A DNA stretch of 64,000 bases. It comes from an uncultured Acidobacteriota bacterium (GTDB lineage: Bacteria; Acidobacteriota; Vicinamibacteria; Vicinamibacterales; 2-12-FULL-66-21). A program made the position numbers and the translations under genes. Where the stretch lies: contig CAVVIH010000005.1 of NCBI GenBank assembly GCA_963748295.1, positions 459,500-523,499 of the forward strand. Direction: 5' to 3'. Below are positions 4,598 through 30,181 of this stretch, one piece after another (position 1 is the first letter of the stretch; the number at the start of each line of letters is the position of its first letter). The notes below the pieces were generated by a model. It was given only the letters and a program-made list of their open reading frames with translations, was not told the DNA's origin and searched no databases.

Positions 4598-4626
4598 ACT
4601 ACAGGTGCGTTACACGCGTGTTAACG
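4598..4626 (+). promoter_or_regulatory. Candidate Pho box (distal): ACTACAG-N4-GTTACAC-N4-GTTAACG
   Basis: Heptamers start at 4598, 4609 and 4620 with exact 11-bp phasing. They lie in the divergent region between the TonB receptor (start 4517) and pstS (start 4766). Confidence 0.5.
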
Positions 4627-5860: not shown

Positions 5861-6802
5861 TTGCGACGCGACGAACTGATCTTCCGCGGCGGGACGGGTG
5901 CGATTGCTCTGCTGCTGATCGTCGTGGTCGTGGCGATCGGCGGCGAGCTGGCGCGCCAGTCGATGCTGTCGATCGAGCATTTCGGGTGGCAGTTCTGGCA
6001 GACGGATGTGTGGGATCCGGTCGCCGGCCAGTTCGGCGCCCGCCCGTTCATCTGGGGCACGCTGTATTCATCGGTGCTCGCGCTCCTGATTGCCGCACCG
6101 ATTTCGCTCGGAATTGCCATCTACATCTCCGAATTGTGCCCGGCGTGGCTGCAGCGCCCGCTGGTGTTTCTCACCGAGCTGCTCGCCGCCATTCCCTCGA
6201 TCGTTTACGGGCTGTGGGGCATCTTCGTCCTGGTACCGTTCGTCCGGCAGCTCCAGATCGCGACGCCGGACTGGATGCGATCGATCCCGCTCTTCAGCGG
6301 GCCGCCGCTCGGCGTCGGCATGCTGTCCGCGGGACTGATCCTCGCGATCATGGTGATTCCGTTCAGCTCGTCGATCGCGCGCGAAGTGCTGCGGTCGGTG
6401 CCTCAGGCACAGCGTGAGGGCGCTTACGCGCTGGGGGCGACGCGGTGGGAAGCGATTCGCATGGCGCTTTTCTACGCGCGCACGGGGATCGTCGGCGCCG
6501 TCATGCTCGGCTTCGGCCGCGCGCTCGGCGAGACGATGGCGGTGACGATGGTGATCGGCAACAACCCGCAGATCAGCCTGTCGCTGTTTGCGCCGCAATA
6601 CACCATGGCCGCCGTGCTGGCGAACGAGTTCGCGGAGGCGGCCGAGGATCTCTACCTGCACGCGCTGGTCGAGATCGGCCTCGTGCTCTTCGTGATCACG
6701 CTGATCGTCAACGGCATTTCGCGGGCGTTCATCTGGTCGATGGGACGCCAGCGCCGGCCGCGCGCTTCGCGCGCCGCCTCCGCGGTAAGGGTTGGAGCCT
6801 GA
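5861..6802 (+). CDS. pstC: Phosphate ABC transporter permease PstC
   Basis: TTG start with GGAGG 8 nt upstream. It is a multi-TM protein with the PstC-type EAA loop (REGAYALGATRWE). Confidence 0.92.
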   Translation: MRRDELIFRGGTGAIALLLIVVVVAIGGELARQSMLSIEHFGWQFWQTDVWDPVAGQFGARPFIWGTLYSSVLALLIAAPISLGIAIYISELCPAWLQRPLVFLTELLAAIPSIVYGLWGIFVLVPFVRQLQIATPDWMRSIPLFSGPPLGVGMLSAGLILAIMVIPFSSSIAREVLRSVPQAQREGAYALGATRWEAIRMALFYARTGIVGAVMLGFGRALGETMAVTMVIGNNPQISLSLFAPQYTMAAVLANEFAEAAEDLYLHALVEIGLVLFVITLIVNGISRAFIWSMGRQRRPRASRAASAVRVGA

Positions 6803-7652
6803 CGTGCGGAATCAGATTCGCCGCTTCGTCTCGCACGCGGTGGTGGTCCTGTGCGGCCTGTCCGTCCTCCTCGCGCTGATCCCGCTCGCGCTCGTTCTGT
6901 TCTACGTGATCTCGCAGGGCGTGTCGTCGCTCAGCTGGGCGTTCTTCACAGAGATGCCGCGCCCTGTCGGCGAGGCCGGCGGCGGCATGGCGAACTCGAT
7001 CGCCGGCACGCTCATCGTCGTCGCCATCGGCGCGTTGTTCGCGATTCCGGTCGGCGTCGTCAGCGGGATCTACGCGGCTGAATACGCCGGCACCAGGCTC
7101 GCCGGCAGCGTCCGGTTCGCCGCAGATACCCTCAACGGCGTCCCGTCGATTGTCATCGGCGTGTTCGTGTATGGAATCGCCGTGCTCCCGTTCAGGCGCT
7201 TCTCAGCGCTCGCTGGCGGCCTGGCGTTGGGCGTCATGATGATTCCGCTCATCATGCGAACGACGGAAGAGCTGCTGCGCCTCGTGCCGACGACGTTGAA
7301 GGAGGGCGCGTTGGCGCTCGGCGCCACGCGCGGCCGCGCGGTCTTCTCGGTCGTGCTGCCGGCCGCCCTGCCCGGTATCGTGACCGGTGTCCTCCTGGCC
7401 CTCTCCAGGATCGCCGGGGAAACCGCGCCGCTGCTGTTCACTTCGTTCAACAACCGGTTCTTCACGACCGACGTCAGCCAACCCATCTCGACGCTGACCG
7501 TGCAGGTGTACACCTACGCCATTTCCCCCTATCAGGACTGGCACCGCCAGGCGTGGGCGGGCGCCCTCGTGCTGGTTCTCATCGTCTTCACCTGCTCGCT
7601 TCTCGCGCGTCTCGCCACCGCGAGAATGGAACGGCTGAGGCGAGGCGCCTGA
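6792..7652 (+). CDS. pstA: Phosphate ABC transporter permease PstA
   Basis: Contains the EAA loop LKEGALALGATRGRAVFSVVLP. An alternative GTG start at 6804 (GGAG 7 nt upstream) is equally plausible. No pstB follows it. Confidence 0.92.
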   Translation: MEPDVRNQIRRFVSHAVVVLCGLSVLLALIPLALVLFYVISQGVSSLSWAFFTEMPRPVGEAGGGMANSIAGTLIVVAIGALFAIPVGVVSGIYAAEYAGTRLAGSVRFAADTLNGVPSIVIGVFVYGIAVLPFRRFSALAGGLALGVMMIPLIMRTTEELLRLVPTTLKEGALALGATRGRAVFSVVLPAALPGIVTGVLLALSRIAGETAPLLFTSFNNRFFTTDVSQPISTLTVQVYTYAISPYQDWHRQAWAGALVLVLIVFTCSLLARLATARMERLRRGA

Positions 7653-9587: not shown

Positions 9588-10349
9588 ATGGAGATACGCG
9601 TGAACGACGCCAGAACGCCGCAACCGGCCGCGCCCGTCGCCGCGGCAGCCGTGAGCAGACCACGGCGCGTCCTCGTCGTGGAAGACGAGCAGGACATCGC
9701 CGGGTTGATCAAACACGCGCTCGAGCGATCGGGTGAGGGCACCGTCGAGATCGTCAGCACCGGAGACGCGGCGCTCCGCGCGGTAACCGAGCAGCCGCCG
9801 GATCTCGTCATCCTGGATCTGAACCTGCCGGTGCTGAGCGGCACCGAGGTGTGCCGCATCCTGCGAGGACGCCCGAGCACCGCGAACATTCCCATCATCA
9901 TGCTCTCGGCGCGCACGGCCGAAACCGATCGCGTCTCGGGCCTCGACCTCGGCGCCGACGATTACGTCACGAAGCCGTTCAGCTTGCGCGAGCTTGCGGC
10001 GCGCGTCAGAGCAGTCCTCCGGCGGCGGCAGCAGGGCGACTCCGCGGCGAGCACAACGAACCTCTACACGGGAGAGCACCTCGTCGCGGACTTCGATGCC
10101 GTCGCCATCAGCGTGGACGGCACCCCCGTGCGGCTCACACGCCGCGAGTTCGAGCTGCTCAAGTTTCTCGTGGAGAACCGGAACCGCGTGCTGTCGCGGG
10201 ACCGGCTGCTGGAACGCGTGTGGGGCTACGAGCGCTTCATCGAAACGCGTTCGGTGGACGTGCACGTGGGGCGTCTGCGCGCCAAGCTGGGGCCCGCCGG
10301 GCAGCAGATCGAGACCGTGGTCGGGCTCGGTTATCGATTCATCGACTGA
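9588..10349 (+). CDS. OmpR/PhoB-family response regulator (REC plus winged-helix trans_reg_C); no adjacent histidine kinase
   Basis: The receiver domain reads RVLVVEDEQDIAGLI...DLVILDLNLPVLSG...DDYVTKPFSLRELAARV. The C-terminal domain reads LTRREFELLKFLVENRNRVLSRDRLLERVWGY...VDVHVGRLRAKL...GLGYRF. Confidence 0.9.
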   Translation: MEIRVNDARTPQPAAPVAAAAVSRPRRVLVVEDEQDIAGLIKHALERSGEGTVEIVSTGDAALRAVTEQPPDLVILDLNLPVLSGTEVCRILRGRPSTANIPIIMLSARTAETDRVSGLDLGADDYVTKPFSLRELAARVRAVLRRRQQGDSAASTTNLYTGEHLVADFDAVAISVDGTPVRLTRREFELLKFLVENRNRVLSRDRLLERVWGYERFIETRSVDVHVGRLRAKLGPAGQQIETVVGLGYRFID

Positions 10350-10593: not shown

Positions 10594-10659
10594 CGTCCTG
10601 GTTCCGTGAAGAAGATTGCTTTGGCACCTTCTTTTTATCCCAGGACCGGGGCGCCGGCT

Positions 10660-10676
10660 GTAAATACTGTGTAAAT
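10660..10676 (+). promoter_or_regulatory. Direct repeat GTAAAT-N5-GTAAAT (11-bp phasing) in an AT-rich divergent region
   Basis: GTAAAT occurs at 10660-10665 and 10671-10676. GTTCCGTGA also occurs twice (about 10607 and 10717). The site lies between the two small divergent ORFs. Confidence 0.3.
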
Positions 10677-10787: not shown

Positions 10788-11033
10788 ATGCTCCTCAGGG
10801 GACGGGAGGCGGCCATGGAAATGCGGTTTGACGATGCGGTTCAGCTGATTCGTCTGGAGTATCTGGAAATGCCGGGTATGGCGCTCACCTACGAGCAGGC
10901 CCGCCGTTTGTGGAATCTTCCGGCCGATCTGTGTCAGCGTGCCCTGGACGATCTCCTCGTCTCGCGCTTCCTCACGCTGACGCGCCACGGCGCCTACGTC
11001 CGCTGCGACGCCGGCACCCGGCACGTCACATGA
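10788..11033 (+). CDS. Hypothetical small protein (about 70-81 aa), possibly wHTH-like
   Basis: ORF MLLRGREAAMEMRFDDAVQLIRLEYLEMPGMALTYEQARRLWNL...; the real start may be the internal MEM. The family is not recognised. Confidence 0.4.
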   Translation: MLLRGREAAMEMRFDDAVQLIRLEYLEMPGMALTYEQARRLWNLPADLCQRALDDLLVSRFLTLTRHGAYVRCDAGTRHVT

Positions 11034-12117
11034 TGCCGGCGAAGAACAACACGAGCTCGAACACCAGGATCAGGACGATCGTCAGCTCCATCAGCTGGCC
11101 GCGCGCGATGGCGACCTGCTCGACGGCAAAGCCATAGATGTCGTCGAGCGTCTCGAGCTTGTCTTCGACACTCGCCTTCCACAACCCGACGCCGAGGCGC
11201 GCCGCCACGAGCTGAACCAGCCGGGCGGCATAGATGTCGCCGATCATCTTCAGCGCGTTCTGCGTGCGGTCCGTGATCTCGTTGACGTCGATGAACAGCG
11301 CGTGCAGCTGTTGCGTCGCCTTGACGTAGCCGCCGCCGGCGATGCTGATGAAACGCTGCCGCTTCTGGAGCTGGGCGTAGATGCGCCTCAGCTCGCGCTC
11401 GAGCAGCTCGTCGTAGTAGCGGAACTCGAGCAGCTGGGAGTTCGCGAACTCGAAGATCTCCAGCGCCGCCTGGGCGCCGGCCTCAGAGTCGTAGACGAAA
11501 GCCGCGTTCCAGGTGGGGACGACGAGATCGTCGGCGAGGTACGACAGCCGGTTGCGCAGGATGTCGTCCTGTTCCTGCGGGCTGAGCGCCTGCTGTTCGC
11601 CTCGGACGAGCAAGGCGATCTCGGCGGATCGCTGGGCGAGGAGCTGCTCCGCCGTGACGTGCGTGTCGAGCGTGGTGACCGAAACGACGAGATAGTCTTC
11701 CGACAGCCAGCCCGAACGCACGGCCGCGATCGGCGACTCGAGCTTCTGCACGGCGGCCCGCACGGCCGCTTCGGCCTGCCGCTCGAGCACCTCGTTCTCG
11801 ATGTAGCGCTGCGCCTGCGCGACGAGCGCCGGCCAGTCGCCGCTGAAGGGACGGGTCAGCGCGAGCGAAACGACGCCGTAATCGAAGAACTTGAAACGGG
11901 CGCTGAAGCCGTCGACCTCCGGCACGCCGAGCGCGGCGCCATCGACGACAAGCGGCGGGACCGCGTACTGGAAATAGGAGGGCGCGCCTGACTTCGGAAC
12001 GAACCTGGCCTCGGCGGCACCGGCGCCGATCACTTTCTGCAGCAGCGACAGGTCGATCGCCTCGGCGACGTCGAAAAGGAAGAACGCGGTGAGGCTTGCG
12101 GCGGTGATCTGCGGCAA
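11026..12117 (-). CDS. DUF155/RMD1-like (YagE-type) protein with a C-terminal TM helix
   Basis: 363 aa, TTG start. It contains FKFFDYGVVSLAL and a C-terminal LMELTIVLILVFELVLFFAGIM segment resembling DUF155 architecture. The assignment is from memory of the family. Confidence 0.5.
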   Translation of the reverse strand: MPQITAASLTAFFLFDVAEAIDLSLLQKVIGAGAAEARFVPKSGAPSYFQYAVPPLVVDGAALGVPEVDGFSARFKFFDYGVVSLALTRPFSGDWPALVAQAQRYIENEVLERQAEAAVRAAVQKLESPIAAVRSGWLSEDYLVVSVTTLDTHVTAEQLLAQRSAEIALLVRGEQQALSPQEQDDILRNRLSYLADDLVVPTWNAAFVYDSEAGAQAALEIFEFANSQLLEFRYYDELLERELRRIYAQLQKRQRFISIAGGGYVKATQQLHALFIDVNEITDRTQNALKMIGDIYAARLVQLVAARLGVGLWKASVEDKLETLDDIYGFAVEQVAIARGQLMELTIVLILVFELVLFFAGIM

Positions 12118-14602: not shown

Positions 14603-15772
14603 TTGCGATATACTCGTCGCCGCGTGCCCCGTTTCGGTCTTGTGCCGGGCCTCGCGCTCCTCGCAGCGCTGATTCCCGGGTCCCTTTCAGCTCAGACGCC
14701 CGCGGGCCCGACGTTCACCTTCGCGGGCTATCTCCAGACGCAGTACAACCGGCTGTCGGTCGGCGACACGTCCCACGATCGCGTCATCTTCCGCCGCGCG
14801 ATCGTCGGCGTCGAAGCGGAATTGAGCGATCGCTGGATGGGCGAGCTGCAGGCGGACATCGCGCCCGTCTCACTCAGCGAGCGGATCGAGATCCGCGATG
14901 CCTACCTCCGCTACACGGGACTGGCGCCTCGCGGCCTCACCTTCACGTTCGGCAATCAGAAGCTGCCCTTCGCGCGCAGCGTGCTGGTGTCGTCGGCGCG
15001 CCGCGGCTTGGTCGAGCGTCCGGTGACGGGTGAACGGGCATACGGCGCCTCCGGCCGCGCCATCGCCTTCAAGGTCGACGGCCGTGACGTCGATCACCTG
15101 CTGCTCTGGTCCGCCGCGGTCGCGTCCGTCCATCATGCGCCGACGAGCGACCAGATTCGCCTCGACGGGCTGGCGACCTCGCGCGCCGACTGGAACGAAG
15201 GGGTGATGCTGGTAGGGCGCACGGAATGGCACCCGCGCGGCTTCGTGCCGCTCGAGCAGGGCGGGTTCGAGGTGAAGAAGACCATCGCGACGATCGGCGG
15301 CGGCGCGTATTACTGGGTCAACGACGGCGACAACAACCTCTTCACCATGGACGGCGCCAGCACGTCGCAGACCGCCGCCGATCTCGATCGCGCGACCGGC
15401 CTCGAACTGAGCGGCGGCGTGCGGGCGCCGCGGCTGTCGATCGACGCGGAGCTGCATCGCATCACCGGGCGCACGATCGATCCGGCCTTCACCGGCGGTC
15501 TGTACCACGCCGGCCGCACGCGCCTGATCAAGTCCTCGATCGAAGCGGGATACATGCTGGCGCCGCCGCACCTGGAATTGCTTGGCGGCGTCGAATCGCT
15601 CGACGTCGACGCCTACGATTCCGTCTCCTGGCGTCCCGCCGCCGGCGTCAACTGGTACGTCTACCGTCACAGGCTGAAGTTCCAATTCATGCAGCGCGAG
15701 ACGCTCAACGAGCTGGGCGTCCGCGGCGCGCACGGTCACGCGACGTACGTGCAGGCGCAGATCATGTTCTGA
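14603..15772 (+). CDS. Outer-membrane beta-barrel porin, phosphate-selective OprO/OprP-like
   Basis: Has a signal peptide (LALLAALIPGSLSAQ), alternating-hydrophobic strands, and a C-terminal YVQAQIMF. It starts 11 nt after the glgC stop. The family call is tentative. Confidence 0.55.
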   Translation: MRYTRRRVPRFGLVPGLALLAALIPGSLSAQTPAGPTFTFAGYLQTQYNRLSVGDTSHDRVIFRRAIVGVEAELSDRWMGELQADIAPVSLSERIEIRDAYLRYTGLAPRGLTFTFGNQKLPFARSVLVSSARRGLVERPVTGERAYGASGRAIAFKVDGRDVDHLLLWSAAVASVHHAPTSDQIRLDGLATSRADWNEGVMLVGRTEWHPRGFVPLEQGGFEVKKTIATIGGGAYYWVNDGDNNLFTMDGASTSQTAADLDRATGLELSGGVRAPRLSIDAELHRITGRTIDPAFTGGLYHAGRTRLIKSSIEAGYMLAPPHLELLGGVESLDVDAYDSVSWRPAAGVNWYVYRHRLKFQFMQRETLNELGVRGAHGHATYVQAQIMF

Positions 15773-16594: not shown

Positions 16595-16688
16595 CTGCCC
16601 GAGTCGCCGGTATGGAGGCCGGCGGCTTCGTCGATGCAGCACGTCGGACGTGAATTGGATGAGGGGCTCTCCGCGAAGGGAGGGTCCC

Positions 16689-17258
16689 ATGTTCTGCCTG
16701 ATACCTGCGCTACTCGCCGCGCTCGTCGTCGGCGTTGCGCCCGCGAGCCTGACGCCATCGCCGCGGTCGAGACCGCCGCTGCATGTCTATCGGGGCATCG
16801 CCCCCGAATACGAAGCGCTGTTGACCGCGCCCCAGCGCCGGCTGCGCGCAACAGACCCACGGATGCAGGCCTTGATCGCGGAGGGCCTCCGCCGCTCGCC
16901 GACCTTCGCGCAGCTGCTCGCCGACCTCGAGAAGACCGACCTCATTGCCTACGTCGAACGCATTCAAAACATGCCGGCGGTGATGTCGGGACGGCTGCTC
17001 TTCGTGTCGGCGTCGCCCGCGCAGCGGTACGTCCGCATTCAGTTGGGGACGGGCGGCACGAACGCGGACGCGATCGTCACGCTCGCGCACGAGCTGCAGC
17101 ACGCAATCGAGGTGGGGACGTCACCGGACGTGCGCGATCAGGAGGCGCTCGCCCGGCTGTACCAGCGGATTGGCCAGAACAGCCTGAGCGGGCATACTTA
17201 CGACACGGTCGCGGCGCAGTCTGCGGGCAAGCTGGTACGCCGGGAACTCGAGGGGTGA
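16689..17258 (+). CDS. Secreted HExxH-motif protein, paralog 2
   Basis: Starts MFCLIPALLAALVVGVAPAS. Contains ...IVTLAHELQHAIEVGTSPDVRDQEALARLYQRIG. It is collinear with paralog 1 over the whole length. I prefer the ATG at 16689, by analogy with the conserved leader/RBS of paralog 1. Confidence 0.6.
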   Translation: MFCLIPALLAALVVGVAPASLTPSPRSRPPLHVYRGIAPEYEALLTAPQRRLRATDPRMQALIAEGLRRSPTFAQLLADLEKTDLIAYVERIQNMPAVMSGRLLFVSASPAQRYVRIQLGTGGTNADAIVTLAHELQHAIEVGTSPDVRDQEALARLYQRIGQNSLSGHTYDTVAAQSAGKLVRRELEG

Positions 17259-18178
17259 GCCGGGGGCAGGCGCGACAGCCAGAACATCACTGACGGCGCC
17301 GCAAAGGCGCCGACCGCCAGCCACGCGCTCGTCCGGTCGGATTTCCGGCTCTGCACGAGCCCATGGACGATCCCACGAAGAGTGTCTCGGGATTTGGCGG
17401 CGTATTCCTCGTGCAGCCGGCGCATGTCCGAGCGAACCCACGCGAGGAGCGAGGCGTACTCTTCGGGAATCGCCCCGCTCGCGCATTCCGCTTCCACCAG
17501 ATCTGCCAGCGTCTGACGGTCGTGCAGGCTTCCGAGCTGCTGCTGAACGCTCTTGAGCGTTTTGAGCGTGCGCTTTCGATCCGGACCATCCAGCGCGAAC
17601 TCGAGCAGGTAGCGCAGCTTCTTGGCCGAGATGCGTACGGCATGCGTCCGGTTTGGAAGGTCCACGCCGCCGGCGCGCTCCACGTCATCCCACAGCTTTC
17701 GCGCGCGGGTTCCGATTCCGGCCCCGATCGCGCGCGCGCGCGCCGCCGACCGCTTGGTGAATCGGAATGGCGAGCGGAGCTCACGGACCGCGGACTCGAG
17801 ATCGTCGAGCGCCAGGCGTTCGAACTTCTTCACCAGGTCCCGTCGAGCGGCGGCCTGGCGATCCATCAGTTTCAGCCGGAGTGCCGTGATTGCCCGTGAC
17901 GCCGACGGAATCCGCAGCTCCAGCCCCTCGAGCTGCTTGACCGAAACGTCGGCGTCGCGCGCCGCGCCAAGCGCGCGACCGATTCGACGGAGCAGCGCGG
18001 ATGTCGCCTCCGTCTGCTGCTCGGGGAGCCCGGCCGTCACAACCGGCAGCAGCGCGCGCAGGCGACGCGTCGCGACGCGCGCATCGTGGACAGCTCCTCT
18101 ATTCCCTTCGCGAATGCCGGGAGCGTTACTGAGCAGTATGTCGAAGTTGGTATGAAAGGCGCGATCCAGGCTGGTCAT
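17198..18178 (-). CDS. CHAD domain protein (polyphosphate-granule-associated family)
   Basis: CHAD signatures VHDARVATRRLRALL, AVRISAKKLRYLLEF and VQQQLGSLHDRQ are present. I prefer the start at ATG 18178 (GGAG 9 nt upstream) over 18202. The 3' end overlaps the convergent HExxH paralog 2 by 61 nt, so the true stop is uncertain. Confidence 0.8.
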   Translation of the reverse strand: MTSLDRAFHTNFDILLSNAPGIREGNRGAVHDARVATRRLRALLPVVTAGLPEQQTEATSALLRRIGRALGAARDADVSVKQLEGLELRIPSASRAITALRLKLMDRQAAARRDLVKKFERLALDDLESAVRELRSPFRFTKRSAARARAIGAGIGTRARKLWDDVERAGGVDLPNRTHAVRISAKKLRYLLEFALDGPDRKRTLKTLKSVQQQLGSLHDRQTLADLVEAECASGAIPEEYASLLAWVRSDMRRLHEEYAAKSRDTLRGIVHGLVQSRKSDRTSAWLAVGAFAAPSVMFWLSRLPPAHPSSSRRTSLPADCAATVS

Positions 18179-18218
18179 CTCGATACTCCGAGTGATCAGC
18201 ATGCAAGAAGCGGGCGAC

Positions 18219-18719
18219 TCAGGACAGCTTGCGGAGCATCAGCGGCGTCACGAACCACCGCAGTTGGCCATGCCCCTTCGGCGGAAGCACCTCGAAGTCG
18301 ATCCGGCAGATCGCCCCCTTCTTGAACTCGATCGGACTGCGGGCTCCGATCAGCCGCGCCGCGAGCTCGCCAAGGTTGGGTTCATGGCCGACAAGGGCGA
18401 TTCGCCCTTTCTTTGAGTGCCGGGCCAGCTCCTGGATCACGGCAGCAGGCGTGCCTGCCGGCGTGAGCGCGTCGCTCGTCGCCACCGGCGGCTTCGACTT
18501 CATCGTCTCGGCGAAGACATCCGCCGTCTGCTTCGCGCGCACGAGCGGACTGGTAATGATTTGATCGAACTCGACCCCGAGATCGTCGAGCGCCTTGGCT
18601 TCGCGCTTCAGCCGGGCGATGCCCTTCGCGATCAACGGACGCTTCGAGTCGTCTGGATACGCCTCGCCGCGCTCCGCAGCGACGCCGTGACGAATGATGT
18701 AGATCTCCCAGGTCGCCAT
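18219..18719 (-). CDS. sixA: Phosphohistidine phosphatase SixA
   Basis: IYIIRHGVA (RHG catalytic motif) ...ITSPLVRAKQTA...LVGHEPNLGEL. 166 aa. Confidence 0.88.
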   Translation of the reverse strand: MATWEIYIIRHGVAAERGEAYPDDSKRPLIAKGIARLKREAKALDDLGVEFDQIITSPLVRAKQTADVFAETMKSKPPVATSDALTPAGTPAAVIQELARHSKKGRIALVGHEPNLGELAARLIGARSPIEFKKGAICRIDFEVLPPKGHGQLRWFVTPLMLRKLS

Positions 18720-18725
18720 GGTCGA

Positions 18726-19704
18726 TCAGCGGTGGGACGTACCAGCCGAGGCCTTCGACAGCGACGCGGCGCGCGCGGCGGACGATGACAGCTTCATCTT
18801 CAGCGGTCCGCGCGATTTGCGACGCCGCGCCACCTGAGGTGCGACGACTGCCTGGATGTCGTCGATCGCGGCCTGCAGCGCGCCGACGGTCGCGAGGTAG
18901 CGCGCATGCAGATGACGGCACTCCTCTTCGAGTTGCCGCGAGATGATTTCGAGGCCGCCCTCGCGCGCCGGATGCGCGCGGCGGCTGCGCCTGCACGGCG
19001 GCGACGTGCGTCTGCAGCACCTGCACGTCGTGCAGACGGCCGAGCGTGTCCTGCACCCGCTTGATGGTCCGCACCGCGTGAGTCGCCGCCTTCACGCCGG
19101 TCTCCCCGCCACTTCCGCCGCGTAACGCAGCTTCTTTGCCGCGATGCGCACCATGTGAAGCCGCTCGGCCTCGTACAACTGACCCGCGTCCGCGACTGCT
19201 GCGCGCAGTGCCTTGGATCGCTTCAGCAGGCGCTTCGAGAGCGCCTCACGCCAGTCGTCTGTTCCGGCCTGCTCGAGCGTCTGCGCCAGCGACGTGAGCC
19301 GCTTATCGAGCTTGTCGACGTTCACACGCCCGAGCCGCTTCAGCATCACCTCGCGACGGCGCTCCTGCTCCTTCATGACGTACGCGCGGACGTCTTCGAG
19401 GGCCAGACGGGGCACCCCTTCGCGCTTGACCAGTTCGTCGATCAGCGCCACCGTGACATCGAGCTCCCGGATCGCCCCGAGCGCGCCCGTAATCCTGCGG
19501 ATCTTCCGTCGCGCCTTGTCGGCTTTGCTGTCCTTCAGGCCGGTCGCGAGCACGGGCACGGCCTCGCGCAGCCGGCGCGAGGCCACCCGTGCCTGGTGAA
19601 CGCCAACCCCATTCCCTGCAGCAGCTTCCGCGAGATGGCGCTTCAGCGCCTGGCTGCGGCGGGCCAGTAACACGGTCGTTACAGGTGGGTTAACGCGGTT
19701 CATG
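18726..19704 (-). CDS. CHAD domain protein, second copy (two frame slips near 19100 and 18975)
   Basis: VHQARVASRRLREAV, MVRIAAKKLRYAAEVAG, then after a slip at a G4 run ETGVKAATHAVRTIKRVQDTLGRLHDVQVL, then a third frame LEIISRQLEEECRHLHARYLATV...SHR ending at 18726. The start is uncertain (ATG 19704 or a downstream GTG). Confidence 0.7.
19668..19696 (+). promoter_or_regulatory. Candidate Pho box: GTAACAC-N4-GTTACAG-N4-GTTAACG
   Basis: Heptamers at 19668, 19679 and 19690 with 11-bp phasing, about 125 nt upstream of ppx. The array overlaps the first codons of the CHAD ORF if ATG 19704 is used. Confidence 0.5.
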
Positions 19705-19819
19705 GTAGGATCGCGGCTCGACAAGACGTTGTGACATGGCTTCCAACCCCAGGTCAGCCAGTATATAACGGGCATATCACGCGGTTCCAACAGTTGAGCC
19801 GCCTCTCCCGCCCGCCCGC

Positions 19820-21487
19820 ATGCGCATCGCAGCCATCGACATAGGCACCAACTCGGTTCACATGATCGTCGTGCAGGTCCGGCCCGACCTGTCGTTCGAA
19901 GTCATCGATCGCGAAAAGGACATGGTGCGCCTGGGCGCGGGGGGCCTCGATGGCCGCAACCTGACCCCGACCGCCATGAGCGCGGCGATGCAGACGCTCT
20001 CGAAGTTCCGGCGGCTGGCCGAATCGCACAAGGTGGACGAAATCGTCGCCGCGGCCACCAGCGCCACGCGCGAAGCCGAGAACGGCGGCGACTTTATCGC
20101 CGAGGTTCTCCGCGAGACCGGAATCGCCATCCGCGTCATCTCCGGCACCGAAGAAGCGCGCCTCATTCACCTCGCGGCGGGGTACGGCGTGGACATCGGC
20201 GGCACCACCGCGGTCGTCGTGGACATCGGCGGCGGCAGCGTCGAGGTCACGCTCGGAACCGCCACGCATCTGACGCTCGGCCGCAGCTTCAAGACCGGCG
20301 TGATCAGGCTGACCGAGCGTTTCGTCCAGAGCGATCCGTTGTCGAGCGGGAACGAGCGGCGCCTCATCAAGCACCTCAATCGCGAGATGGGCGCGTATCT
20401 GGACCAGATTGCCGCGCGCGGCTTCGACCGGGTGATCGGCACGTCCGGCACGATTCTGAGCCTTGGCGCGATGGCGTCGAGCGACGAATCGGGAAGCGTC
20501 GAAGACCTCCGCAACCTTCAAGTCTCCGCCAAGGCGCTTCACAAGCTCCGCAAGCGCATTGTCGAATCGGATATCGGGGAGCGCCTGAAGATTCCCGCGA
20601 TGGATCCGCGCCGCGCGGATCTGTCGGTCGCCGGCTCGGTGCTGTTCGACACCATCGTCCGCCGTCTCGGCGCCGACGAATTCACGCTGTGCGACCTGGC
20701 GCTCCGTGAGGGTCTGGTCCTCGACTACATCCATCGGAACAGCGCGAAGATCCGCAAGGCGGAGCGCTACCCCGACGTCCGCCGGCGCAGCGTGATCGAG
20801 CTGGGCGAACGCTGCGGCTACTGGTCGGAGCACGCGCAGCAGGTGGCGCGGCTCGCGTTGAGCATTTTCGACCAGACACGCAGCGTGCACGGCTTGTCGG
20901 ACAAAGAGCGTGAGTGGCTCGAGTTCGGCGCGCTGCTGCACGACGTCGGCGTGCACATCAGCTACGAGCGTCATCACCGGCATTCGTACTACCTGATCAA
21001 GAACGGCGATCTCCGCGGCTTCAATCCGCAGGAGATCGAGGTCATCGCGCTGCTCGCCCGCTATCACCGTCAGGCCACGCCGAAGAAATCGCACGACGGA
21101 TATACGGATCTCTCCGGCACGCAGCGGGGAACCGTGAAAACGCTCTCGGCGATGGTGCGCCTCGCGGAAGGCCTCGATCGCAGCCACGCCCAGGCACTCT
21201 CGGGACTCGATATCTTCCCGCGCGGCGACGATTATCTCGTCCGGCTGCGGGCGTCAGGAGACGCGGAGCTCGAGCTGTGGGCCGCGCACCGGCACGTCGC
21301 GCCGCTGGAGAAAGTGCTCGGCAAGCCAATACGCTTCGAAGTCGCCGGCAGCGACTACAAGGAACGCGCGAAAAATGGTGAACAACCTGACCACACCGCA
21401 CGTGCACCCGGGAAAGCTGTTCGTGGTCGAAGGCATCGACGGGTCGGGAAAGACGACGCAGCTCGCGCTGCTGGCAAAGTGGCTTAG
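19820..21487 (+). CDS. ppx: Exopolyphosphatase / guanosine pentaphosphate phosphohydrolase (Ppx/GppA) with a C-terminal HD domain
   Basis: IAAIDIGTNSVHMIVV, VVDIGGGSVEV, and HD region LLHDVGVHISYERHHRHSYYLI. The last roughly 37 codons overlap the next gene by 113 nt and look like out-of-frame read-through (Arg/Ala-rich), so the real stop may be earlier. Confidence 0.88.
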   Translation: MRIAAIDIGTNSVHMIVVQVRPDLSFEVIDREKDMVRLGAGGLDGRNLTPTAMSAAMQTLSKFRRLAESHKVDEIVAAATSATREAENGGDFIAEVLRETGIAIRVISGTEEARLIHLAAGYGVDIGGTTAVVVDIGGGSVEVTLGTATHLTLGRSFKTGVIRLTERFVQSDPLSSGNERRLIKHLNREMGAYLDQIAARGFDRVIGTSGTILSLGAMASSDESGSVEDLRNLQVSAKALHKLRKRIVESDIGERLKIPAMDPRRADLSVAGSVLFDTIVRRLGADEFTLCDLALREGLVLDYIHRNSAKIRKAERYPDVRRRSVIELGERCGYWSEHAQQVARLALSIFDQTRSVHGLSDKEREWLEFGALLHDVGVHISYERHHRHSYYLIKNGDLRGFNPQEIEVIALLARYHRQATPKKSHDGYTDLSGTQRGTVKTLSAMVRLAEGLDRSHAQALSGLDIFPRGDDYLVRLRASGDAELELWAAHRHVAPLEKVLGKPIRFEVAGSDYKERAKNGEQPDHTARAPGKAVRGRRHRRVGKDDAARAAGKVA

Positions 21488-22073
21488 CGCCGCCGGCCAT
21501 CCGGTGTTCGTCACCGAGTGGAACTCGTCGGCGATCGTCAAGGCGGCGACGAAAACCGGCAAGAAGAAGAACGCGCTGACGCCGATGACGTTCAGCCTGT
21601 TGCACGCCACGGACTTCGCCGATCGCCTCCTTTACAACGTCATTCCCCCGCTCAAGGCCGGCATGATCGTGCTGGCCGATCGCTATGCCTATACCGCCTT
21701 CGCGCGCGATGCCGCGAGAGGCGTCGATCGGCACTGGGTGCGTGAGCTGTACAGCTTCGCGGTCAAACCGGACCTCAGCGTCTACTTCAAGGTGCCGCTC
21801 GACGTCTCGACCGATCGACTCCTGGCGCGGCGCGTGAAGCTCAAGTTCTACGAAGCCGGCATGGACATGGGCTGGAGCACGAACGTCATCGAGAGCTTCC
21901 GGATTTTCCAGGGCCGCGTGCTCGACGAGTACGATCGGCTCGTCGAGGAGTTCGACCTGAGCGTCATTCCGGCGCACGGCAGCATCACCGACCAGCAGCG
22001 CACGTTCCGCAAGCTGGTCTCTCAGCACCTGCAGATCAAGGACACCGATGAACAGCTCGACGAGCTTGCCTGA
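21375..22073 (+). CDS. Thymidylate-kinase-like P-loop kinase, copy 1 (canonical Walker A)
   Basis: FVVEGIDGSGKTTQ (Lys codon at 21450-21452) and LADRYAYTAFA (DRY-like). It is longer and more divergent than housekeeping Tmk. Confidence 0.7.
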   Translation: MVNNLTTPHVHPGKLFVVEGIDGSGKTTQLALLAKWLSAAGHPVFVTEWNSSAIVKAATKTGKKKNALTPMTFSLLHATDFADRLLYNVIPPLKAGMIVLADRYAYTAFARDAARGVDRHWVRELYSFAVKPDLSVYFKVPLDVSTDRLLARRVKLKFYEAGMDMGWSTNVIESFRIFQGRVLDEYDRLVEEFDLSVIPAHGSITDQQRTFRKLVSQHLQIKDTDEQLDELA

Positions 22074-22851
22074 GGGAGAGCCTCAGGCCCGTAAGAGCAC
22101 CCGCGACGATACGCGCAGCGACCCGTCGGGCGCGTCGGCCGTGAAGCCCGGGAGCTATTACGGCAACGGCATCCCCTATCTGCCGATCGAGGGCTACCCC
22201 GGAAAGATCATCGCGATCGAAGGCACCGATGGCGTCGGCCGGACGACGCAGATCAGGCTGCTGCGGGAGTGGCTGGAGGTCCAGGGCTACGGCGTGATCG
22301 AAACCGGGTGGACGCGCTCCCAGCTGATGCAGCCGACGATCGATCTGGCCAAAGGCAGCAACACGCTCAACAAGCTGACGTTCGTGCTGCTGTATGCCAC
22401 CGACTTCGCGGACCGCCTTGAAAAGGAAATCATTCCAGCCCTCAAAGCCGGCTTCGTGGTCCTCTCCGACCGTTACATCTTCACGGCAATGGCGCGGGCG
22501 GGAGTACCAGGCGTCGATCGCACCTGGGTCCGCAATCTCTACGGGTTCGCCATTGCGCCCCACCTCGTCTTCTACCTCAAGACCGACGAGAAGACGCTGA
22601 TCCGCCGCGTGCTGCAGTCGCGCGGCATGGATTTCTGGGAATCGGGCATGGACATGAAGCTCGGCGACGACATTTACGAGAGCTTCCGCGCCTACCAGCG
22701 CGCGATGCTCCGAGAGTTCACCTCGATGTCCGAAGAGTTCGGGTTCCGGGTGCTCGACGCGCGCCGGAAGATCGACGTCATCCAGGAAGAGCTCCGCCGG
22801 CAGATCGGGGCCTTCCTGGCCGAAAGCGATGGCGGAAGGCCGGGCGACTAG
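22048..22851 (+). CDS. Thymidylate-kinase-like P-loop protein, copy 2 (Walker A Lys replaced by Arg)
   Basis: IAIEGTDGVGRTTQ (CGG Arg codon at 22240-22242) and LSDRYIFTAMA. It is collinear with copy 1 (FVLLYATDFADRL vs FSLLHATDFADRL; FWESGMDM vs FYEAGMDM) and overlaps it by 26 nt. Confidence 0.7.
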   Translation: MNSSTSLPEGEPQARKSTRDDTRSDPSGASAVKPGSYYGNGIPYLPIEGYPGKIIAIEGTDGVGRTTQIRLLREWLEVQGYGVIETGWTRSQLMQPTIDLAKGSNTLNKLTFVLLYATDFADRLEKEIIPALKAGFVVLSDRYIFTAMARAGVPGVDRTWVRNLYGFAIAPHLVFYLKTDEKTLIRRVLQSRGMDFWESGMDMKLGDDIYESFRAYQRAMLREFTSMSEEFGFRVLDARRKIDVIQEELRRQIGAFLAESDGGRPGD

Positions 22852-22854
22852 GTG

Positions 22855-22883
22855 GTTACACAGAATTTACACGTGTGAAACTG
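22855..22883 (+). promoter_or_regulatory. Candidate Pho box: GTTACAC-N4-TTTACAC-N4-GAAACTG
   Basis: Heptamers at 22855, 22866 and 22877. The array starts 4 nt after the preceding stop and ends 35 nt before the pstB ATG. Confidence 0.5.
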
Positions 22884-22917
22884 GCGGGAAATCGCCGGCA
22901 GTTAGGCTGAATCTCGC

Positions 22918-23748
22918 ATGAGTGCGCTTCAGACCAGCCCGCGGCCGCTGGCGGTCCAGACCCGCCCCCAGGATCCGTCCGCACAAGACCGGCCGGTGTC
23001 GATAGACGTTGCCGGGCTGAACTTCTACTACGGGCCCAAGCGAGCGCTCGAAGACATCTCCGTCAAGATTCCCGCCCGGCTCGTCACGGCGTTCATCGGG
23101 CCGTCCGGCTGCGGCAAGAGCACATTCCTGCGCACGCTGAACAGGATGAACGACATCATTCCTGGCACGCGGGTCGAGGGAAAAGTCCTGATCGAGGGCG
23201 ATGACGTCTACCGGCCGGGCACCGACGTCGTCGCGCTTCGCCGGCGCGTCGGCATGGTCTTCCAGAAGTCGAATCCGTTTCCGAAGTCCATCTTCGAGAA
23301 CGTGGCGTATGGCCTGCGGATCAACGGGCTGGCGAATGGACGGGCGGACCTCAACGAGCGGGTCGAGGAGAGCCTGAAGGCCGCGGCCATCTGGGACGAA
23401 GTGAAAGATCGACTCTACGATTCCGCGCTGGCGCTCTCGGGCGGCCAGCAGCAGCGGCTGTGCATCGCCCGCGCGCTGGCGATCAAGCCGGAGATCCTGC
23501 TGATGGACGAGCCGGCGTCGGCGCTGGATCCGATCGCCACCCAGCGCATCGAGGAGCTGATCTACCAGCTCAAGTCGGAGTACACCATCGTCATCGTCAC
23601 CCATAACATGCAGCAGGCGGCGCGGGTGTCGGATCGCACCGCGTTCTTCTGGCTCGGGCGGCTCGTCGAGTACGGGTCGACCGATCGCATCTTCACGAAC
23701 CCGGCGGAAAAGCTGACCGAAGACTACGTCACCGGGCGGTTTGGATAG
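22918..23748 (+). CDS. pstB: Phosphate ABC transporter ATP-binding protein PstB
   Basis: [38 protein letters not shown], and the PstB-typical C-terminal [10 protein letters not shown]. Confidence 0.95.
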
Positions 23749-23755
23749 GACCTCG

Positions 23756-24436
23756 ATGGCAGAACGGATCGTTCCCCACTTCCAGGAGGAGCTGGAACAG
23801 CTCAAGACGCGGCTGCTCGAGATGGGCGGGCTGGCCGAGGACCGCGTGCGCGCCTCGGTGCAGGCGCTGGTCGAACGCGACTCGACGCTGGTCGATCGCG
23901 TGCTCGCCGGCGACGGTCCGATCAACCAGCTGCACATCGAGATCGACAGCCGCTGCTTCAAGCTGCTCGCCCTGCATCAGCCGATGGCGGTCGACCTCCG
24001 CGCGATCGTGTCGGCGGTGAAGATCAACACCGACCTCGAGCGGGTCGGCGATCTGGCGATCAACATCGCCGAGGCGGCGCGCCGGTATCTGCGGCACCCG
24101 CCGGTCAAGGAGCTGATCGACATCCCGCGGATGGCGGACATCGCGCAGCGCATGCTGCGCAACGCGCTCGATTCCTACGTCCGCCGCGACCTCAAGCTCG
24201 CGCACGAGGTGCTCAACGAGGACGACCTGCTCGACTCGCTGAAGACGCAGGTGTTCCGCGAGCTGCTCACCTACATGCTGCAGAACACCGCGACGATCGA
24301 GCCGGCGCTCGACCTGATCCTGATCTCACGGCACCTCGAACGGATCGGCGACCATGCGACCAACGTCGCCGAGGACGTCATCTTCATGGTGTCGGCGCGC
24401 GACGTCCGGCACCACGCCGGCGAGGTCGAGGCCTAA
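23756..24436 (+). CDS. phoU: Phosphate signalling complex protein PhoU
   Basis: Two PhoU repeats are present (INTDLERVGDLAINIAE and ISRHLERIGDHATNVAED). I prefer the ATG at 23756 over the track TTG at 23741, which overlaps the pstB stop. Confidence 0.93.
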   Translation: MAERIVPHFQEELEQLKTRLLEMGGLAEDRVRASVQALVERDSTLVDRVLAGDGPINQLHIEIDSRCFKLLALHQPMAVDLRAIVSAVKINTDLERVGDLAINIAEAARRYLRHPPVKELIDIPRMADIAQRMLRNALDSYVRRDLKLAHEVLNEDDLLDSLKTQVFRELLTYMLQNTATIEPALDLILISRHLERIGDHATNVAEDVIFMVSARDVRHHAGEVEA

Positions 24437-24469
24437 CAGACCGGCGCTCGGCCGGCAACGAACCTCCAC

Positions 24470-24696
24470 GAATCCGCGACAATCAGCGTCCCGCGATCCT
24501 TCTGATCCGTGGAATCCGCGACAATCAGCGTTCCGTGATCCTCCTGATCCTGGATCCGCGACAATCAGCGTTCCGTGATCCTCCTGATCCCTGGATCCGC
24601 GACAATCAGCGTTCCGTGATCCTCCTGATCCGTGGAATCCGCGACAATCAGCGTTCCGTGATCCTCCTGATCCGTGGAATCCGCGTCTCCGCTGAT
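24470..24696. repeat. Tandem array of 5 full and 1 partial copies of a 41-42-bp unit GAATCCGCGACAATCAGCGTTCCGTGATCCTCCTGATCCGTG
   Basis: Unit boundaries are 24470, 24512, 24553, 24594, 24635 and 24677. Copies 2-5 differ by only 1-3 nt. There are no spacers, so it is not a CRISPR array. Confidence 0.92.
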
Positions 24697-24709
24697 AGAA
24701 TAAATAGGT

Positions 24710-24888
24710 TTGCCACGGCCCGAACCGCTCTGCGTGGTACTGTCGCCGTTCGCCGGTCGACCCGGCCTGGCGACCGTTCTGCAGCGAGCGGTGCAAGATG
24801 GCTGATCTCGGCCGCTGGCTGACCGAAGAAGTACCGGGTGCCCGTCGAGGCCCCGCCGGACCGGCCGGAGGATACCGGCGACGAATAA
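24710..24888 (+). CDS. yacG: YacG-like zinc-finger protein (DNA gyrase inhibitor family), not in the ORF track; 2 apparent frame slips
   Basis: The frame containing ...CRRSPVDPAWRPFCSERCKMADLGRWLTEE matches the YacG signature PFCSxRCxxxDLGxW. The N-terminus (TTG 24710, PRPEPLCV) and the tail (YRVPVEAPPDRPEDTGDE, stop 24886-24888) lie in neighbouring frames. Confidence 0.5.
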
Positions 24889-28574: not shown

Positions 28575-30181
28575 TTACGCCTGATACCGCAGCACCATCA
28601 CCGTGATGTCGTCGTTCTGCGGCGCCCCGCGCGCGAACTCGCGTACGTCCGCGAACAGCTGGTCGAGCAGCTTCTGCGGTTCGACGCTTTCGTTCGCTTG
28701 GACGAGGCTCAGGATCCGGCCTTCGCCGTATTCCTCGCCGGTGACCGACAACGCTTCGGAGACGCCGTCGCTGAACACGACGAGCCAGTCGCCGGGTGTC
28801 AGCTGCACCGTCTCCTCTTCGTAGCTCGCGCTCTCGAACAGTCCCGACGATCGGTCCGCCGCGCTCGAGGCGGCGGAAGCCGTTCGGTCCGACGATCAAC
28901 GGCGGGTTGTGCCCGGCGTTGCAGTAGGTCAAATGGCCGTCGGGATGGAGAGCGCCATACATCAGCGTCACGAACCGCGACTCGATCCCGCGGCGGTAGA
29001 GCGCGAGGTTGACGCGGCTGATGGTCTGCGACGGCGGATCGCTGCCGGCGGCTTGAGCCGCAAACATGCCCTGCATCATCGCGCTGAGGAGCGCCGCCGG
29101 CGGCCCCTTGCCCGCCACGTCGCCGAGCGCGAAGCCGAACGATCCATCCAACAGGTCGACGTAATCGTAGAAGTCGCCGCCGATCGATCGGCATGGCAGC
29201 GACGCGGCCGCCGCACGGAAGTAGGCGCCCGTGCGGCCAGCCTTGGGCAGGAGCGCCTGCTGGATCTCGGCAGCGATCCGCATCTCCTGCTCCATCCGCG
29301 CCTTCTCCATCGTCTCGCGATAGAGCCTGGCATTCTCGATGGCAACCGCGGCTTCGGTCGCAAGCGTCTCGAGCGCGGCGCGCGTCGAGTTCGACAGCAG
29401 CGATCCCTTCTCGCGGCTGTCGAGATACAGCACGCCGATCCGCCGTTCTTCGCCGGCAGCCTCCGCCTTGTCCAGATACCGCACGAGCCGGAGCGGCACG
29501 CACAGCACGTTGCGGATGCCGAGCGCCACGGTGCCGGAGTGGAAGTTGGCAAGCTCGCTGTCCAGCAAGTCGGCGACGATGCGCGGCCTCGCCGGTGCGG
29601 AACACTTCCTCGGGAATCTTGCGGCTGGTCGCGAAGCTTCCGCCCGGCAGCACCACGCGGCCGCGGTTGCGCGCCATCTTGAATTCCAGCTCGCCCCCCT
29701 GGTCGAGCATGATGAAGCCGCGCTCCGCACCACCCACCTCTATCGCCGAGTCCAGCACCAGCGACAGCACGTCGTCGAGCACGCGGCCCGAGCCGAGCGC
29801 CCGCAGGCCCTCCAGGAGCACCGCAATCTGCCGCAGGTCCCCGATCGCCGTGGTCGTCGCGCGCTCCACCGGCGGGGCGGTGTCGGCGAGCAGGAACACC
29901 ATTTCCGCGCCGCCGGTCCGTCCGAGGCGGACGCGATCGCCGTGCGCCAGGGCGCGCTCGGTGACCTGATCGCCGTTGACGTAGGTCCCGTAGCGCGAAT
30001 TGCGGTCGCGCAGCAGGAAACGGTTGTCCTGGACGAGGATTTCGGCGTGATCGCGCGACACTTCGCTGCCGGCCAGGCGGAGGTCGTTGGTCTCGCGGCG
30101 GCCAATCTCGAAGTGCCCCTTGGAAATCGGTACGATTCGCCGGCCCATGGCGTCGGTCACTTCGAGTCGGGCATCTGACAT
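28575..30181 (-). CDS. FHA-GAF-PP2C (SpoIIE-type) serine/threonine phosphatase (2 frame slips near 29587 and 28845)
   Basis: FHA domain: FEIGRRETNDLRLAGSEVSRDHAEI...NSRYGTYVNG. GAF-like middle region. PP2C domain: IGGDFYDYV...GFALGDVAGKGPPAALLSAMMQG...TYCNAGHNPP...VVFSDGVSEA...NDDITVMVL. Confidence 0.8.

Follow-up and report, generated by a model that had tools for sequence, protein, structure and literature searches.

A thymidylate-kinase-like gene pair in an uncultured Acidobacteriota bacterium as a probable family-3 polyphosphate kinase with catalytic and presumed regulatory subunits

A stretch of 64,000 nucleotides from an uncultured Acidobacteriota bacterium of the order Vicinamibacterales (contig CAVVIH010000005.1 of assembly GCA_963748295.1, positions 459,500 to 523,499 of the forward strand), designated here as the window, contains two adjacent genes on the plus strand whose products resemble thymidylate kinases (Tmk) and which probably encode the two subunits of a family-3 polyphosphate kinase (PPK3). 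The first gene (copy 1; 21375..22073) codes for a protein of 232 amino acids (aa) with the motifs EGIDGSGKTTQ and DRYAYTAFARD, and the second (copy 2; 22048..22851) for a protein of 267 aa with the motifs EGTDGVGRTTQ and DRYIFTAMARA. The genes are read in different frames and overlap by 26 nucleotides (nt), and the sequence AAGGA is located 6 nt upstream of the ATG of copy 2. In copy 2, the lysine of the Walker A motif (P-loop) is replaced by an arginine, Arg65, whose CGG codon can be read directly from the sequence (22240..22242, plus strand). These coordinates, motifs, lengths and the overlap of the two copies agree with a preliminary description of the locus. The two proteins share 43 % identity, and both pass the Pfam model Thymidylate_kin (PF02223) with 78.7 bits for copy 1 and 82.8 bits for copy 2. 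The preliminary description had also attributed C-terminal extensions to both proteins, which does not describe them well: the extra length of copy 2 lies mostly at its N-terminus, which is extended by about 50 aa, so that its P-loop begins at residue 58 rather than at residue 9 as in E. coli Tmk, and both copies additionally differ from E. coli Tmk by about 11 inserted residues (AGMDMGWSTNV) and by short tails. Residues 1-42 of copy 2 are disordered in the AlphaFold2 prediction. The extension carries a YYGxGIPY motif (YYGNGIPY in copy 2), and this N-terminal aromatic-aromatic-Gly motif is common to the bacterial and Nitrososphaera relatives of copy 2, whereas those of the Sulfolobaceae lack it. 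A divergence of the DRY region, likewise proposed at the outset, applies to the residues following the triplet, which differ from those of Tmk, but not to the triplet itself, which is canonical in both copies.

A system of this kind is known from the archaeon Sulfolobus acidocaldarius, where two "thymidylate kinases" encoded beside ppx form the heteromeric polyphosphate kinase SaPPK3, the operon having the order sixA-ppx-c-r-CHAD (Hofmann et al., JBC 2026, PMC12995831; preprint 10.1101/2024.08.28.610084). Its catalytic subunit cPPK3 (Saci_2019) synthesizes polyphosphate (polyP) from ATP, preferentially forms ATP from ADP and polyP, and has no dTMP kinase (dTMPK) activity, which is found in the product of a separate gene, Saci_0893. 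The regulatory subunit rPPK3 (Saci_2020) is inactive alone, exhibiting neither PPK nor dTMPK activity and producing only traces of ADP, and stimulates cPPK3 6- to 10-fold; together, the subunits form an α2β2 heterotetramer on an r-dimer core (Hofmann et al. 2026). STK_15430 of Sulfurisphaera tokodaii was named as a cPPK3 homolog in the same study. In our view, the gene pair of the window encodes a bacterial PPK3 composed of a catalytic and a regulatory subunit with a probability of roughly 85 %. The pair is therefore not an undescribed system, as had been supposed from the sequence, since PPK3 was published in bioRxiv in 2024 and in JBC in 2026, the preprint including a mention of Acidobacteriota homologs.

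Several independent comparisons point in this direction. In a sequence search of the PDB, both copies match one and the same chain (STK_15430; entries 2plr, 4nzy, 4rzx and 5h70) far above all others, copy 1 with an E-value of 1.2e-53 over residues 13-217 (2plr/5h70) compared to 3e-15 for the best true Tmk, and copy 2 with 3.1e-41 compared to 1.9e-15 for the best canonical Tmk. Neither protein reaches the cut-off of 83.25 bits of the dTMP kinase equivalog model TIGR00041 (78.0 bits for copy 1, 77.5 bits for copy 2), and the identity of the pair as a housekeeping Tmk was rejected on these scores. When aligned with E. coli Tmk, three segments which we take to constitute the dTMP site of Tmk are replaced in both proteins, namely REPGGT by EWNSS (copy 1) or GWTRS (copy 2), FYAAR by LHATD or LYATD, and STQAYQ by YTAFARD or FTAMARA. 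The AlphaFold2 model of copy 2 (mean pLDDT 81.2, pTM 0.77, core above 85) has its best Foldseek match again in STK_15430 (TM-score 0.90-0.92, rmsd about 2 Å), followed by canonical Tmks with TM-scores of 0.74-0.87. PPK2 does not occur among the top 50 Foldseek matches of this model, nor does the PPK2 family (PF03976) match either copy among the Pfam hits at E ≤ 0.01, and membership of the pair in PPK2 was ruled out on these two grounds. 

For the assignment of the two copies to the two subunits, profiles were built from 79 bacterial catalytic-type (c-type) and 78 bacterial regulatory-type (r-type) proteins. Each of these bacterial profiles prefers the corresponding archaeal subunit. For the archaeal rPPK3s, the r profile yields 47-83 bits more than the c profile (Saci_2020, 129.9 versus 82.9 bits; the r protein of Metallosphaera (Msed), 134.6 versus 72.9 bits; that of Nitrososphaera, 204.0 versus 120.8 bits), and for the archaeal c proteins, the c profile yields 41-117 bits more than the r profile (Saci_2019, 268.2 versus 217.4 bits). 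On either profile, E. coli Tmk obtains no more than 37-39 bits, compared to 130-364 bits of the archaeal PPK3 subunits on the matching one. Copy 1 shares 46 % identity with Saci_2019, and Saci_2020 matches copy 2 better than copy 1 (101 versus 75 bits). A neighbour-joining (NJ) tree rooted on E. coli Tmk as single outgroup places every c and r sequence within the ingroup. The c proteins, copy 1 and the archaeal cPPK3s among them, make up a monophyletic clade with 87 % bootstrap support, and copy 2 groups with the clade of bacterial and Nitrososphaera r proteins.

The residues lining the substrate cleft separate the two types in the same way. Of the two subunits, cPPK3 alone has conserved the positively charged polyP cleft (Hofmann et al. 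2026). Seven basic positions (K56, K60, K64, K65, K131, R153 and K157) are occupied by Lys or Arg in 82-100 % of the 79 c-types; in the 78 r-types, six of them are basic in 0-4 % and the seventh, K60, in 36 %. Copy 1 possesses all seven of these c-specific residues together with K26, the DRY motif and the lid residue R148, and shares P-loop, DRY, lid and basic cleft with Saci_2019. In copy 2, the seven positions are represented by Q, D, G, S, A, a gap and D, so that none is basic; as the c-specific basic residues are lost, the r-type has no obvious polyP site. Since profile scores, the c clade and the cleft residues agree with the respective type, copy 1 is assigned as the ortholog of cPPK3 and thus as the predicted catalytic subunit, and copy 2 as the ortholog of rPPK3, a regulatory and presumably non-catalytic subunit.

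The exchange in the Walker A motif of copy 2 is a property of the bacterial r-type as a whole. The column contains arginine in 78 of 78 r-type and lysine in 79 of 79 c-type bacterial orthologs, and among the domains of a representative library clustered at 50 % identity two classes dominate, 82 with lysine and DRY and 39 with arginine and DRY. A sequencing error, which had been named initially as a possible source of the arginine, can be dismissed because every one of the 78 r-type orthologs carries it. Five Sulfolobaceae r proteins were sampled (loci L081, L085, L087, L088 and L089); all five show DGY in place of DRY, and their Walker A residue is arginine in three species (Metallosphaera sedula, S. 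tokodaii and Acidianus manzaensis) and lysine in two (S. acidocaldarius and S. solfataricus). Arginine thus being present in all 78 bacterial proteins, in Nitrososphaera and in three of five Sulfolobaceae, and DGY in the Sulfolobaceae only, the Walker A Lys-to-Arg exchange is the family-wide signature of the r-type, and the loss of the arginine of the DRX motif is specific for the Sulfolobaceae. As the Walker A residue varies among Sulfolobaceae rPPK3s, in which DGY is fixed, the experimentally studied Saci_2020 with its lysine is atypical of the r family at the P-loop. The main texts of the JBC paper and of the preprint do not mention the Lys-to-Arg exchange. The r-type is somewhat less conserved than the c-type, with a mean pairwise identity across loci of 0.62 versus 0.69 and 68 versus 97 of 203 core columns conserved to at least 90 %, but it is under strong purifying selection and is not decaying.

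A genome scan revealed relatives of the pair in at least 591 species-level bacterial genomes, mostly of Acidobacteriota and Nitrospirota, the best matches being metagenome-assembled genomes (MAGs) of Vicinamibacterales/Acidobacteriota with 83-89 % identity. For the following counts, 80 loci from species-representative genomes were retained, of which about 56 belong to Acidobacteriota, 11 to Nitrospirota, 5 to Planctomycetota and 3 to Chloroflexota, the remaining 5 being from other or unclassified organisms. The order c-then-r is found in 77 loci, the exceptions being one reversed pair, one fusion and one truncation at a contig end. A ppx gene lies within 300 nt of the pair in 69 loci, SixA and CHAD genes are each present in 48, and at least one of ppx, SixA, CHAD, pstB and phoU occurs in 73 of the 80. 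The linkage to phosphate genes, whose absence would have spoken against the role proposed in the preliminary description, is therefore strongly conserved, and the proposal itself, namely a function in phosphate economy instead of dTMP phosphorylation, is very likely correct, given that the homologous SaPPK3 interconverts ATP and polyP and lacks dTMP kinase activity. In metagenome proteins, copy 2 is represented by more than 7,700 clusters at 90 % identity. All homologs for which a source name is given bear the name "dTMP kinase" or thymidylate kinase. Published accounts describe PPK3 from "a few taxonomically scattered bacteria", with Acidobacteriota mentioned in the preprint (Hofmann et al. 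2026; 10.1101/2024.08.28.610084). The kind of enzyme is therefore already known, but in view of at least 591 species genomes against these few bacteria, its bacterial breadth is understated in the literature.

In the window, the pair is embedded in a block of polyP-related genes (17198-22851) comprising two CHAD genes, a SixA gene, ppx, copy 1 and copy 2. The gene ppx (19820..21487, plus strand) encodes an exopolyphosphatase of the Ppx/GppA family (Pfam Ppx-GppA, 188.6 bits; Ppx-GppA_III, 111.5 bits; HD) and obtains 253.7 bits on TIGR03706, which is below the cut-off of 307 bits of this "exopolyphosphatase only" model. Its reading frame extends 113 nt into copy 1 (21375-21487), as the preliminary description had correctly stated, and an identical overlap exists in 11 of the 13 closest loci. 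Most loci of the next group have a longer overlap of 239-248 nt, and in other phyla it is near zero (a few tens of nt in either direction). The part of ppx lying within copy 1 would code for an Arg/Ala-rich tail. Divergently oriented to ppx are the genes for a CHAD-domain protein (19092..19790, minus strand; Pfam CHAD, 86.5 bits), which belongs to a polyP-granule-associated type, for a SixA-like histidine phosphatase (18219..18719, minus strand; His_Phos_1, 46.3 bits) and for a second CHAD-domain protein (17198..18202, minus strand; CHAD, 121 bits). Downstream of copy 2 follow pstB (22918..23748, plus strand; ABC_tran, 106.7 bits), encoding the ATPase of the phosphate ABC transporter, and phoU (23741..24436, plus strand; PhoU, 157.9 bits, two domains). 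The pst operon is divided in two: pstB-phoU stand immediately behind rPPK3, an order (r-pstB-phoU) that recurs in the Vicinamibacterales-like loci L001-L023, and pstS-pstC-pstA (4649-7652, identified by Pfam) are located about 15 kb farther upstream. Further genes of the window encode an OmpR-type response regulator (9588-10349) and a phosphate-selective porin (14603-15772). Genomes encoding PPK3 also contain a canonical dTMPK gene at another place and are usually devoid of PPK1 and PPK2 (Hofmann et al. 2026); PPK1, PPK2 and a canonical tmk were not found among the 38 open reading frames (ORFs) scanned in the window.

A Pho box following copy 2 had been noted in the preliminary description, and a Pho-box-like direct repeat is indeed present. 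The sequence TTACAC-N5-TTACAC, with a period of 11 bp, occurs as an exact match in the spacer between rPPK3 and pstB (22856..22872, plus strand), 46 nt upstream of the ATG of pstB. The window contains five such sites with at most two mismatches, compared to 0.35 expected, and none of 100 shuffled sequences reached five; a related repeat is located in the r/pstB spacer of 11 of 16 related loci. Three of the five sites precede pstS or pstB or fall in the divergent CHAD/ppx region: besides the exact repeat, these are a site with two mismatches 34 nt upstream of pstS (4599..4615, plus strand) and a weak one, also with two mismatches, in the CHAD/ppx region (19668..19684, plus strand), which is tentative and, depending on the start codon, possibly lies inside the 5' end of the CHAD reading frame. 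The other two (10658-10674 and 48370-48386, both on the minus strand, with one and two mismatches, respectively) are situated away from recognised phosphate genes, one of them following the gene of the OmpR-type response regulator at a distance of about 300 nt. We infer that a PhoB/PhoP-type regulator may act at the putative Pho box 22856-22872. Since the c and r genes overlap, follow ppx, adjoin the SixA and the two CHAD genes and precede pstB-phoU with its Pho-box-like repeat, the functions for synthesis, use and degradation of polyP and the granule proteins are encoded together and probably tied to the Pho regulon.

Some further features of the window surround this block. The spacer between phoU and the citrate synthase gene contains a tandem repeat (24470-24685; period 42, 5.2 copies, 95 % matches), which gives rise to spurious repetitive ORFs on both strands. 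Five ORFs (16650-17258 and 29339-30178 and 55837-56940 on the plus strand, 11026-12117 and 48339-50228 on the minus strand) show a coding-like GC content at third codon positions and have no Pfam match at E ≤ 1e-4; the first of them overlaps the 3' end of a CHAD gene by 61 nt.

Natural fusions, drawn from the representative protein library, provide independent support for the PPK3 reading, the partners of the c-type domain being Ppx domain III, SPX, MFS transporters and inorganic pyrophosphatase. Single chains composed of c, r and Ppx domain III/HD are found in P0127 and P0151 (650-696 aa), and a genuine c-r fusion of 460 aa (P0121, WP_258112839.1) occurs in several genomes of Alicyclobacillaceae. 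The second domains of P0127, P0151 and P0121 have degenerate P-loops reading GHYQ, GVTH and GTSL, and because the P-loop is fully degenerate in these c-r fusions, the r partner need not be catalytic. In the protist Ancoracysta twista (P0181), a c-type domain is combined with an SPX phosphate-sensing domain and DUF2252/APH, and in P0178, P0190, P0205 and P0270 (770-1240 aa; P0270 from an Elusimicrobiota MAG) an MFS transporter is joined with c and DUF2252. The SPX and MFS fusions, which could couple polyP chemistry to transport or to the sensing of inorganic phosphate (Pi), are unmentioned in the PPK3 papers (Hofmann et al. 2026 and preprint). An inorganic pyrophosphatase (InPase) domain stands beside the c-type domain in P0226 (968 aa) and P0167 (2575 aa), the latter also containing an ADP-ribosyltransferase domain (ART-PolyVal) of the kind that characterizes the polyvalent proteins of mobile elements. 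A further group of near-identical homologs (P0002-P0005 and P0075; 389-466 aa), considered as natural c-r fusions and as a proxy for the heteromer, was discarded because junk linkers, truncated domains and scrambled P-loops identify its members as frameshift or assembly artefacts. Split r or ppx genes and apparent fusions in the loci L007, L016, L021, L023 and L040 are likewise consistent with frameshifts in metagenome assemblies.

By analogy with SaPPK3, the pair would operate as follows. The predicted catalytic subunit, copy 1, would bind ATP or ADP in the nucleotide site of the Tmk fold, and a cleft lined with Lys and Arg, which replaces the dTMP site, would accept the end of a polyP chain, so that the reversible reaction ATP + polyP(n) ↔ ADP + polyP(n+1) could be catalyzed; a low ATP/ADP ratio would favour the regeneration of ATP from polyP. 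Copy 2, a paralog with an arginine in place of the P-loop lysine and no polyP cleft, would most likely not transfer phosphate but oligomerize and keep cPPK3 in its active conformation, in the Sulfolobus form as an r-dimer core with one c subunit on each side. The active/pseudo-active heterodimer suggested in the preliminary description is therefore very likely right in combining one active with one non-catalytic subunit, but the characterised complex has α2β2 stoichiometry and is not a heterodimer of the Tmk type.

Several observations weigh against the PPK3 reading as a whole or against parts of it. Enzyme activity is extrapolated from a thermoacidophilic archaeal enzyme with which the bacterial proteins share 46 % (c) and 30 % (r) identity. 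In the NJ tree, monophyly of the r proteins including those of the Sulfolobaceae has a bootstrap support of only 32 %, and the fast-evolving Sulfolobaceae r proteins are placed on a long branch near the outgroup; the tree was dropped as proof of a single r origin at this value, and the asymmetry of the profile scores together with the maximum-likelihood (ML) phylogeny of Hofmann et al. (2026) was used instead. A scan of positions 19500-24800 yielded no sigma-70 promoter, and intrinsic terminators only at background level, with three compared to 3.0 expected. Finally, the inactivity of rPPK3 has been ascribed to the lost arginine of the DRX motif (Hofmann et al. 2026), and this arginine is retained, as DRY, in copy 2, in 78 of 78 bacterial r-types and in the Nitrososphaera r protein, so that copy 2 does not show the DRX replacement by which rPPK3 was characterised. 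The published argument consequently fails for copy 2, whose presumed inactivity is suggested only by the Lys-to-Arg exchange and the missing cleft. We nevertheless treat DRX loss as non-defining for rPPK3, because it is lineage-specific and because bacterial and Nitrososphaeraceae operons are counted as PPK3 by Hofmann et al. (2026).

The retained DRY motif leads directly to a different view of copy 2, according to which both subunits are catalytically competent and the r subunit performs a second reaction, e.g., with a different nucleotide or as polyP-dependent phosphorylation of nucleoside monophosphates, the arginine being tolerated or even used for specificity. The catalytic elements of the r-type are well preserved: E19, G20, D22 and G25 of the P-loop occur in all 78 proteins, G23 in 76 and T28 in 77 of them, position 27 is always Ser or Thr, DRY and R111 are invariant, the lid residue R148 is present in 100 %, and the strong purifying selection described above as well as the trace of ADP formed by Saci_2020 fit such a role. 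This has to be set against the established knowledge on P-loop NTPases that an exchange of the Walker A lysine for arginine generally abolishes phosphate transfer. The absence of the c-specific basic cleft residues and hence of an obvious polyP site, the lack of PPK and dTMPK activity of Saci_2020 (Hofmann et al. 2026) and the fully degenerate second P-loops of the natural c-r fusions also argue for a non-catalytic r subunit, and we regard a second activity as unlikely.

Questions can also be raised about the substrate of the pair. The Ppx/GppA-family neighbour remains below the cut-off for "exopolyphosphatase only", which would suit an action on another substrate connected with this neighbour, such as guanosine penta/tetraphosphate or other nucleotide pools; this is very unlikely in our opinion, as the Sulfolobus ortholog of copy 1 uses ATP/ADP and polyP (Hofmann et al. 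2026), the cleft residues are conserved from the archaea to copy 1, and the CHAD, SixA and pst neighbours suggest polyP and Pi rather than (p)ppGpp. There is hardly any room for the conventional annotation, by which copy 1 would be the housekeeping dTMP kinase and copy 2 a degenerating tandem duplicate. It can draw on the Pfam Thymidylate_kin matches of both copies, on the dTMP/thymidylate kinase labels of all named public homologs and on the absence of another tmk from the 38 ORFs scanned in the window, but it conflicts with the TIGR00041 scores below cut-off and the replaced dTMP-site segments, with the lack of dTMPK activity of Saci_2019 and its presence in the separate Saci_0893 (Hofmann et al. 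2026), with the high conservation of copy 2 and its invariant arginine across phyla, which is not that of a decaying gene, and with the linkage to ppx in 69 of 80 genomes. 

Compared with SaPPK3, the locus has the same basic organisation, in which adjacent, overlapping paralogs of the Tmk fold directly follow ppx and are accompanied by SixA and CHAD genes. In the S. acidocaldarius locus (L081), sixA (3292-3768) is followed by ppx (3769-5004), Saci_2019 (5001-5642), Saci_2020 (5621-6253) and a gene for a protein of 206 aa. The c/r overlap is similar in both loci, with 26 nt in the window and 22 nt in S. acidocaldarius, whereas ppx and c overlap by 113 nt here and by 4 nt in Sulfolobus. Copy 2 resembles Saci_2020 in being r-type by profile score and in having lost the cleft, but differs in combining GR with DRY, where Saci_2020 combines GK with DGY, and in its N-terminal extension with the aromatic-aromatic-Gly motif. 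In the window, SixA and CHAD are transcribed divergently, two CHAD genes are present, and downstream of the pair a Pho-box-like repeat precedes pstB-phoU. The host, a bacterium, is presumably mesophilic.

STK_15430, which entered the PDB under the name "dTMP kinase" and is now considered to be a cPPK3 homolog, is the best match of known structure for both proteins by sequence and for the copy 2 model by fold; it is, however, of the catalytic type (GK, DRY and a KKK patch), and copy 2 differs from it at the P-loop lysine and in the cleft. To our knowledge, no structure of an r subunit or of a c-r complex has been solved. Canonical Tmks share with the pair the fold, the layout of P-loop, DRX motif and lid, and the residues of the ATP site, but have different dTMP-site segments, score about 40 orders of magnitude in E-value behind the cPPK3 homolog, and are homodimers in contrast to the heteromeric PPK3 complex (Hofmann et al. 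2026). The two-domain class II enzymes of the PPK2 family, which have an inactive N-terminal domain, are comparable in being P-loop kinases that transfer phosphate between polyP and nucleotides and in using a degenerate module for oligomerization, but nucleotide and polyP sites are swapped in PPK3 (Hofmann et al. 2026). The name PPK3 has also been given to SPO1727 of Silicibacter (Ruegeria) pomeroyi (Nahalka and Patoprsty 2009), which, according to a review (PMC3163519), is a PPK2 homolog selective for pyrimidine nucleoside diphosphates; apart from its name and from polyP as phosphate donor, it has nothing in common with the Tmk-derived PPK3, is unrelated to it, and the two should not be confused.

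The value of these results lies mainly in annotation. The homologs are named dTMP or thymidylate kinase and no NCBIfam model separates PPK3 from true Tmk, and for these reasons the likely polyP kinase of Acidobacteriota, Nitrospira and other environmental phyla will be missed when polyP metabolism is surveyed from genomes. To the published account, the analysis adds an r signature consisting of the Walker A Lys-to-Arg exchange with DRY kept, and a distribution over at least 591 species genomes; both additions are modest and leave the identity of the system unchanged. For experiments, a PPK3 from a presumably mesophilic bacterium would be more convenient than an archaeal enzyme working at 70 °C, and it could be of interest for ATP regeneration in biocatalysis.

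In P-loop NTPases, replacement of the Walker A lysine by arginine usually preserves nucleotide binding while abolishing transfer, and a nucleotide-sensing role of the r-type is considered possible for this reason. With its arginine-containing P-loop, DRY motif and lid arginine, the bacterial rPPK3 would then bind ATP or ADP without turnover and gate cPPK3 according to the adenylate energy charge. We offer, as a speculation that is more likely to fail than to hold, the combined proposal that bacterial rPPK3 is such a nucleotide-binding sensor rather than a dead scaffold and that PPK3, far from being a rarity of "a few bacteria", may be a main polyP kinase in lineages abundant in soil and water, namely Vicinamibacteria, Blastocatellia/Pyrinomonadaceae, Nitrospira and some Planctomycetota and Chloroflexota. 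If the latter part is true, a main polyP kinase of these lineages at present goes unnoticed among thousands of proteins annotated as "dTMP kinase".

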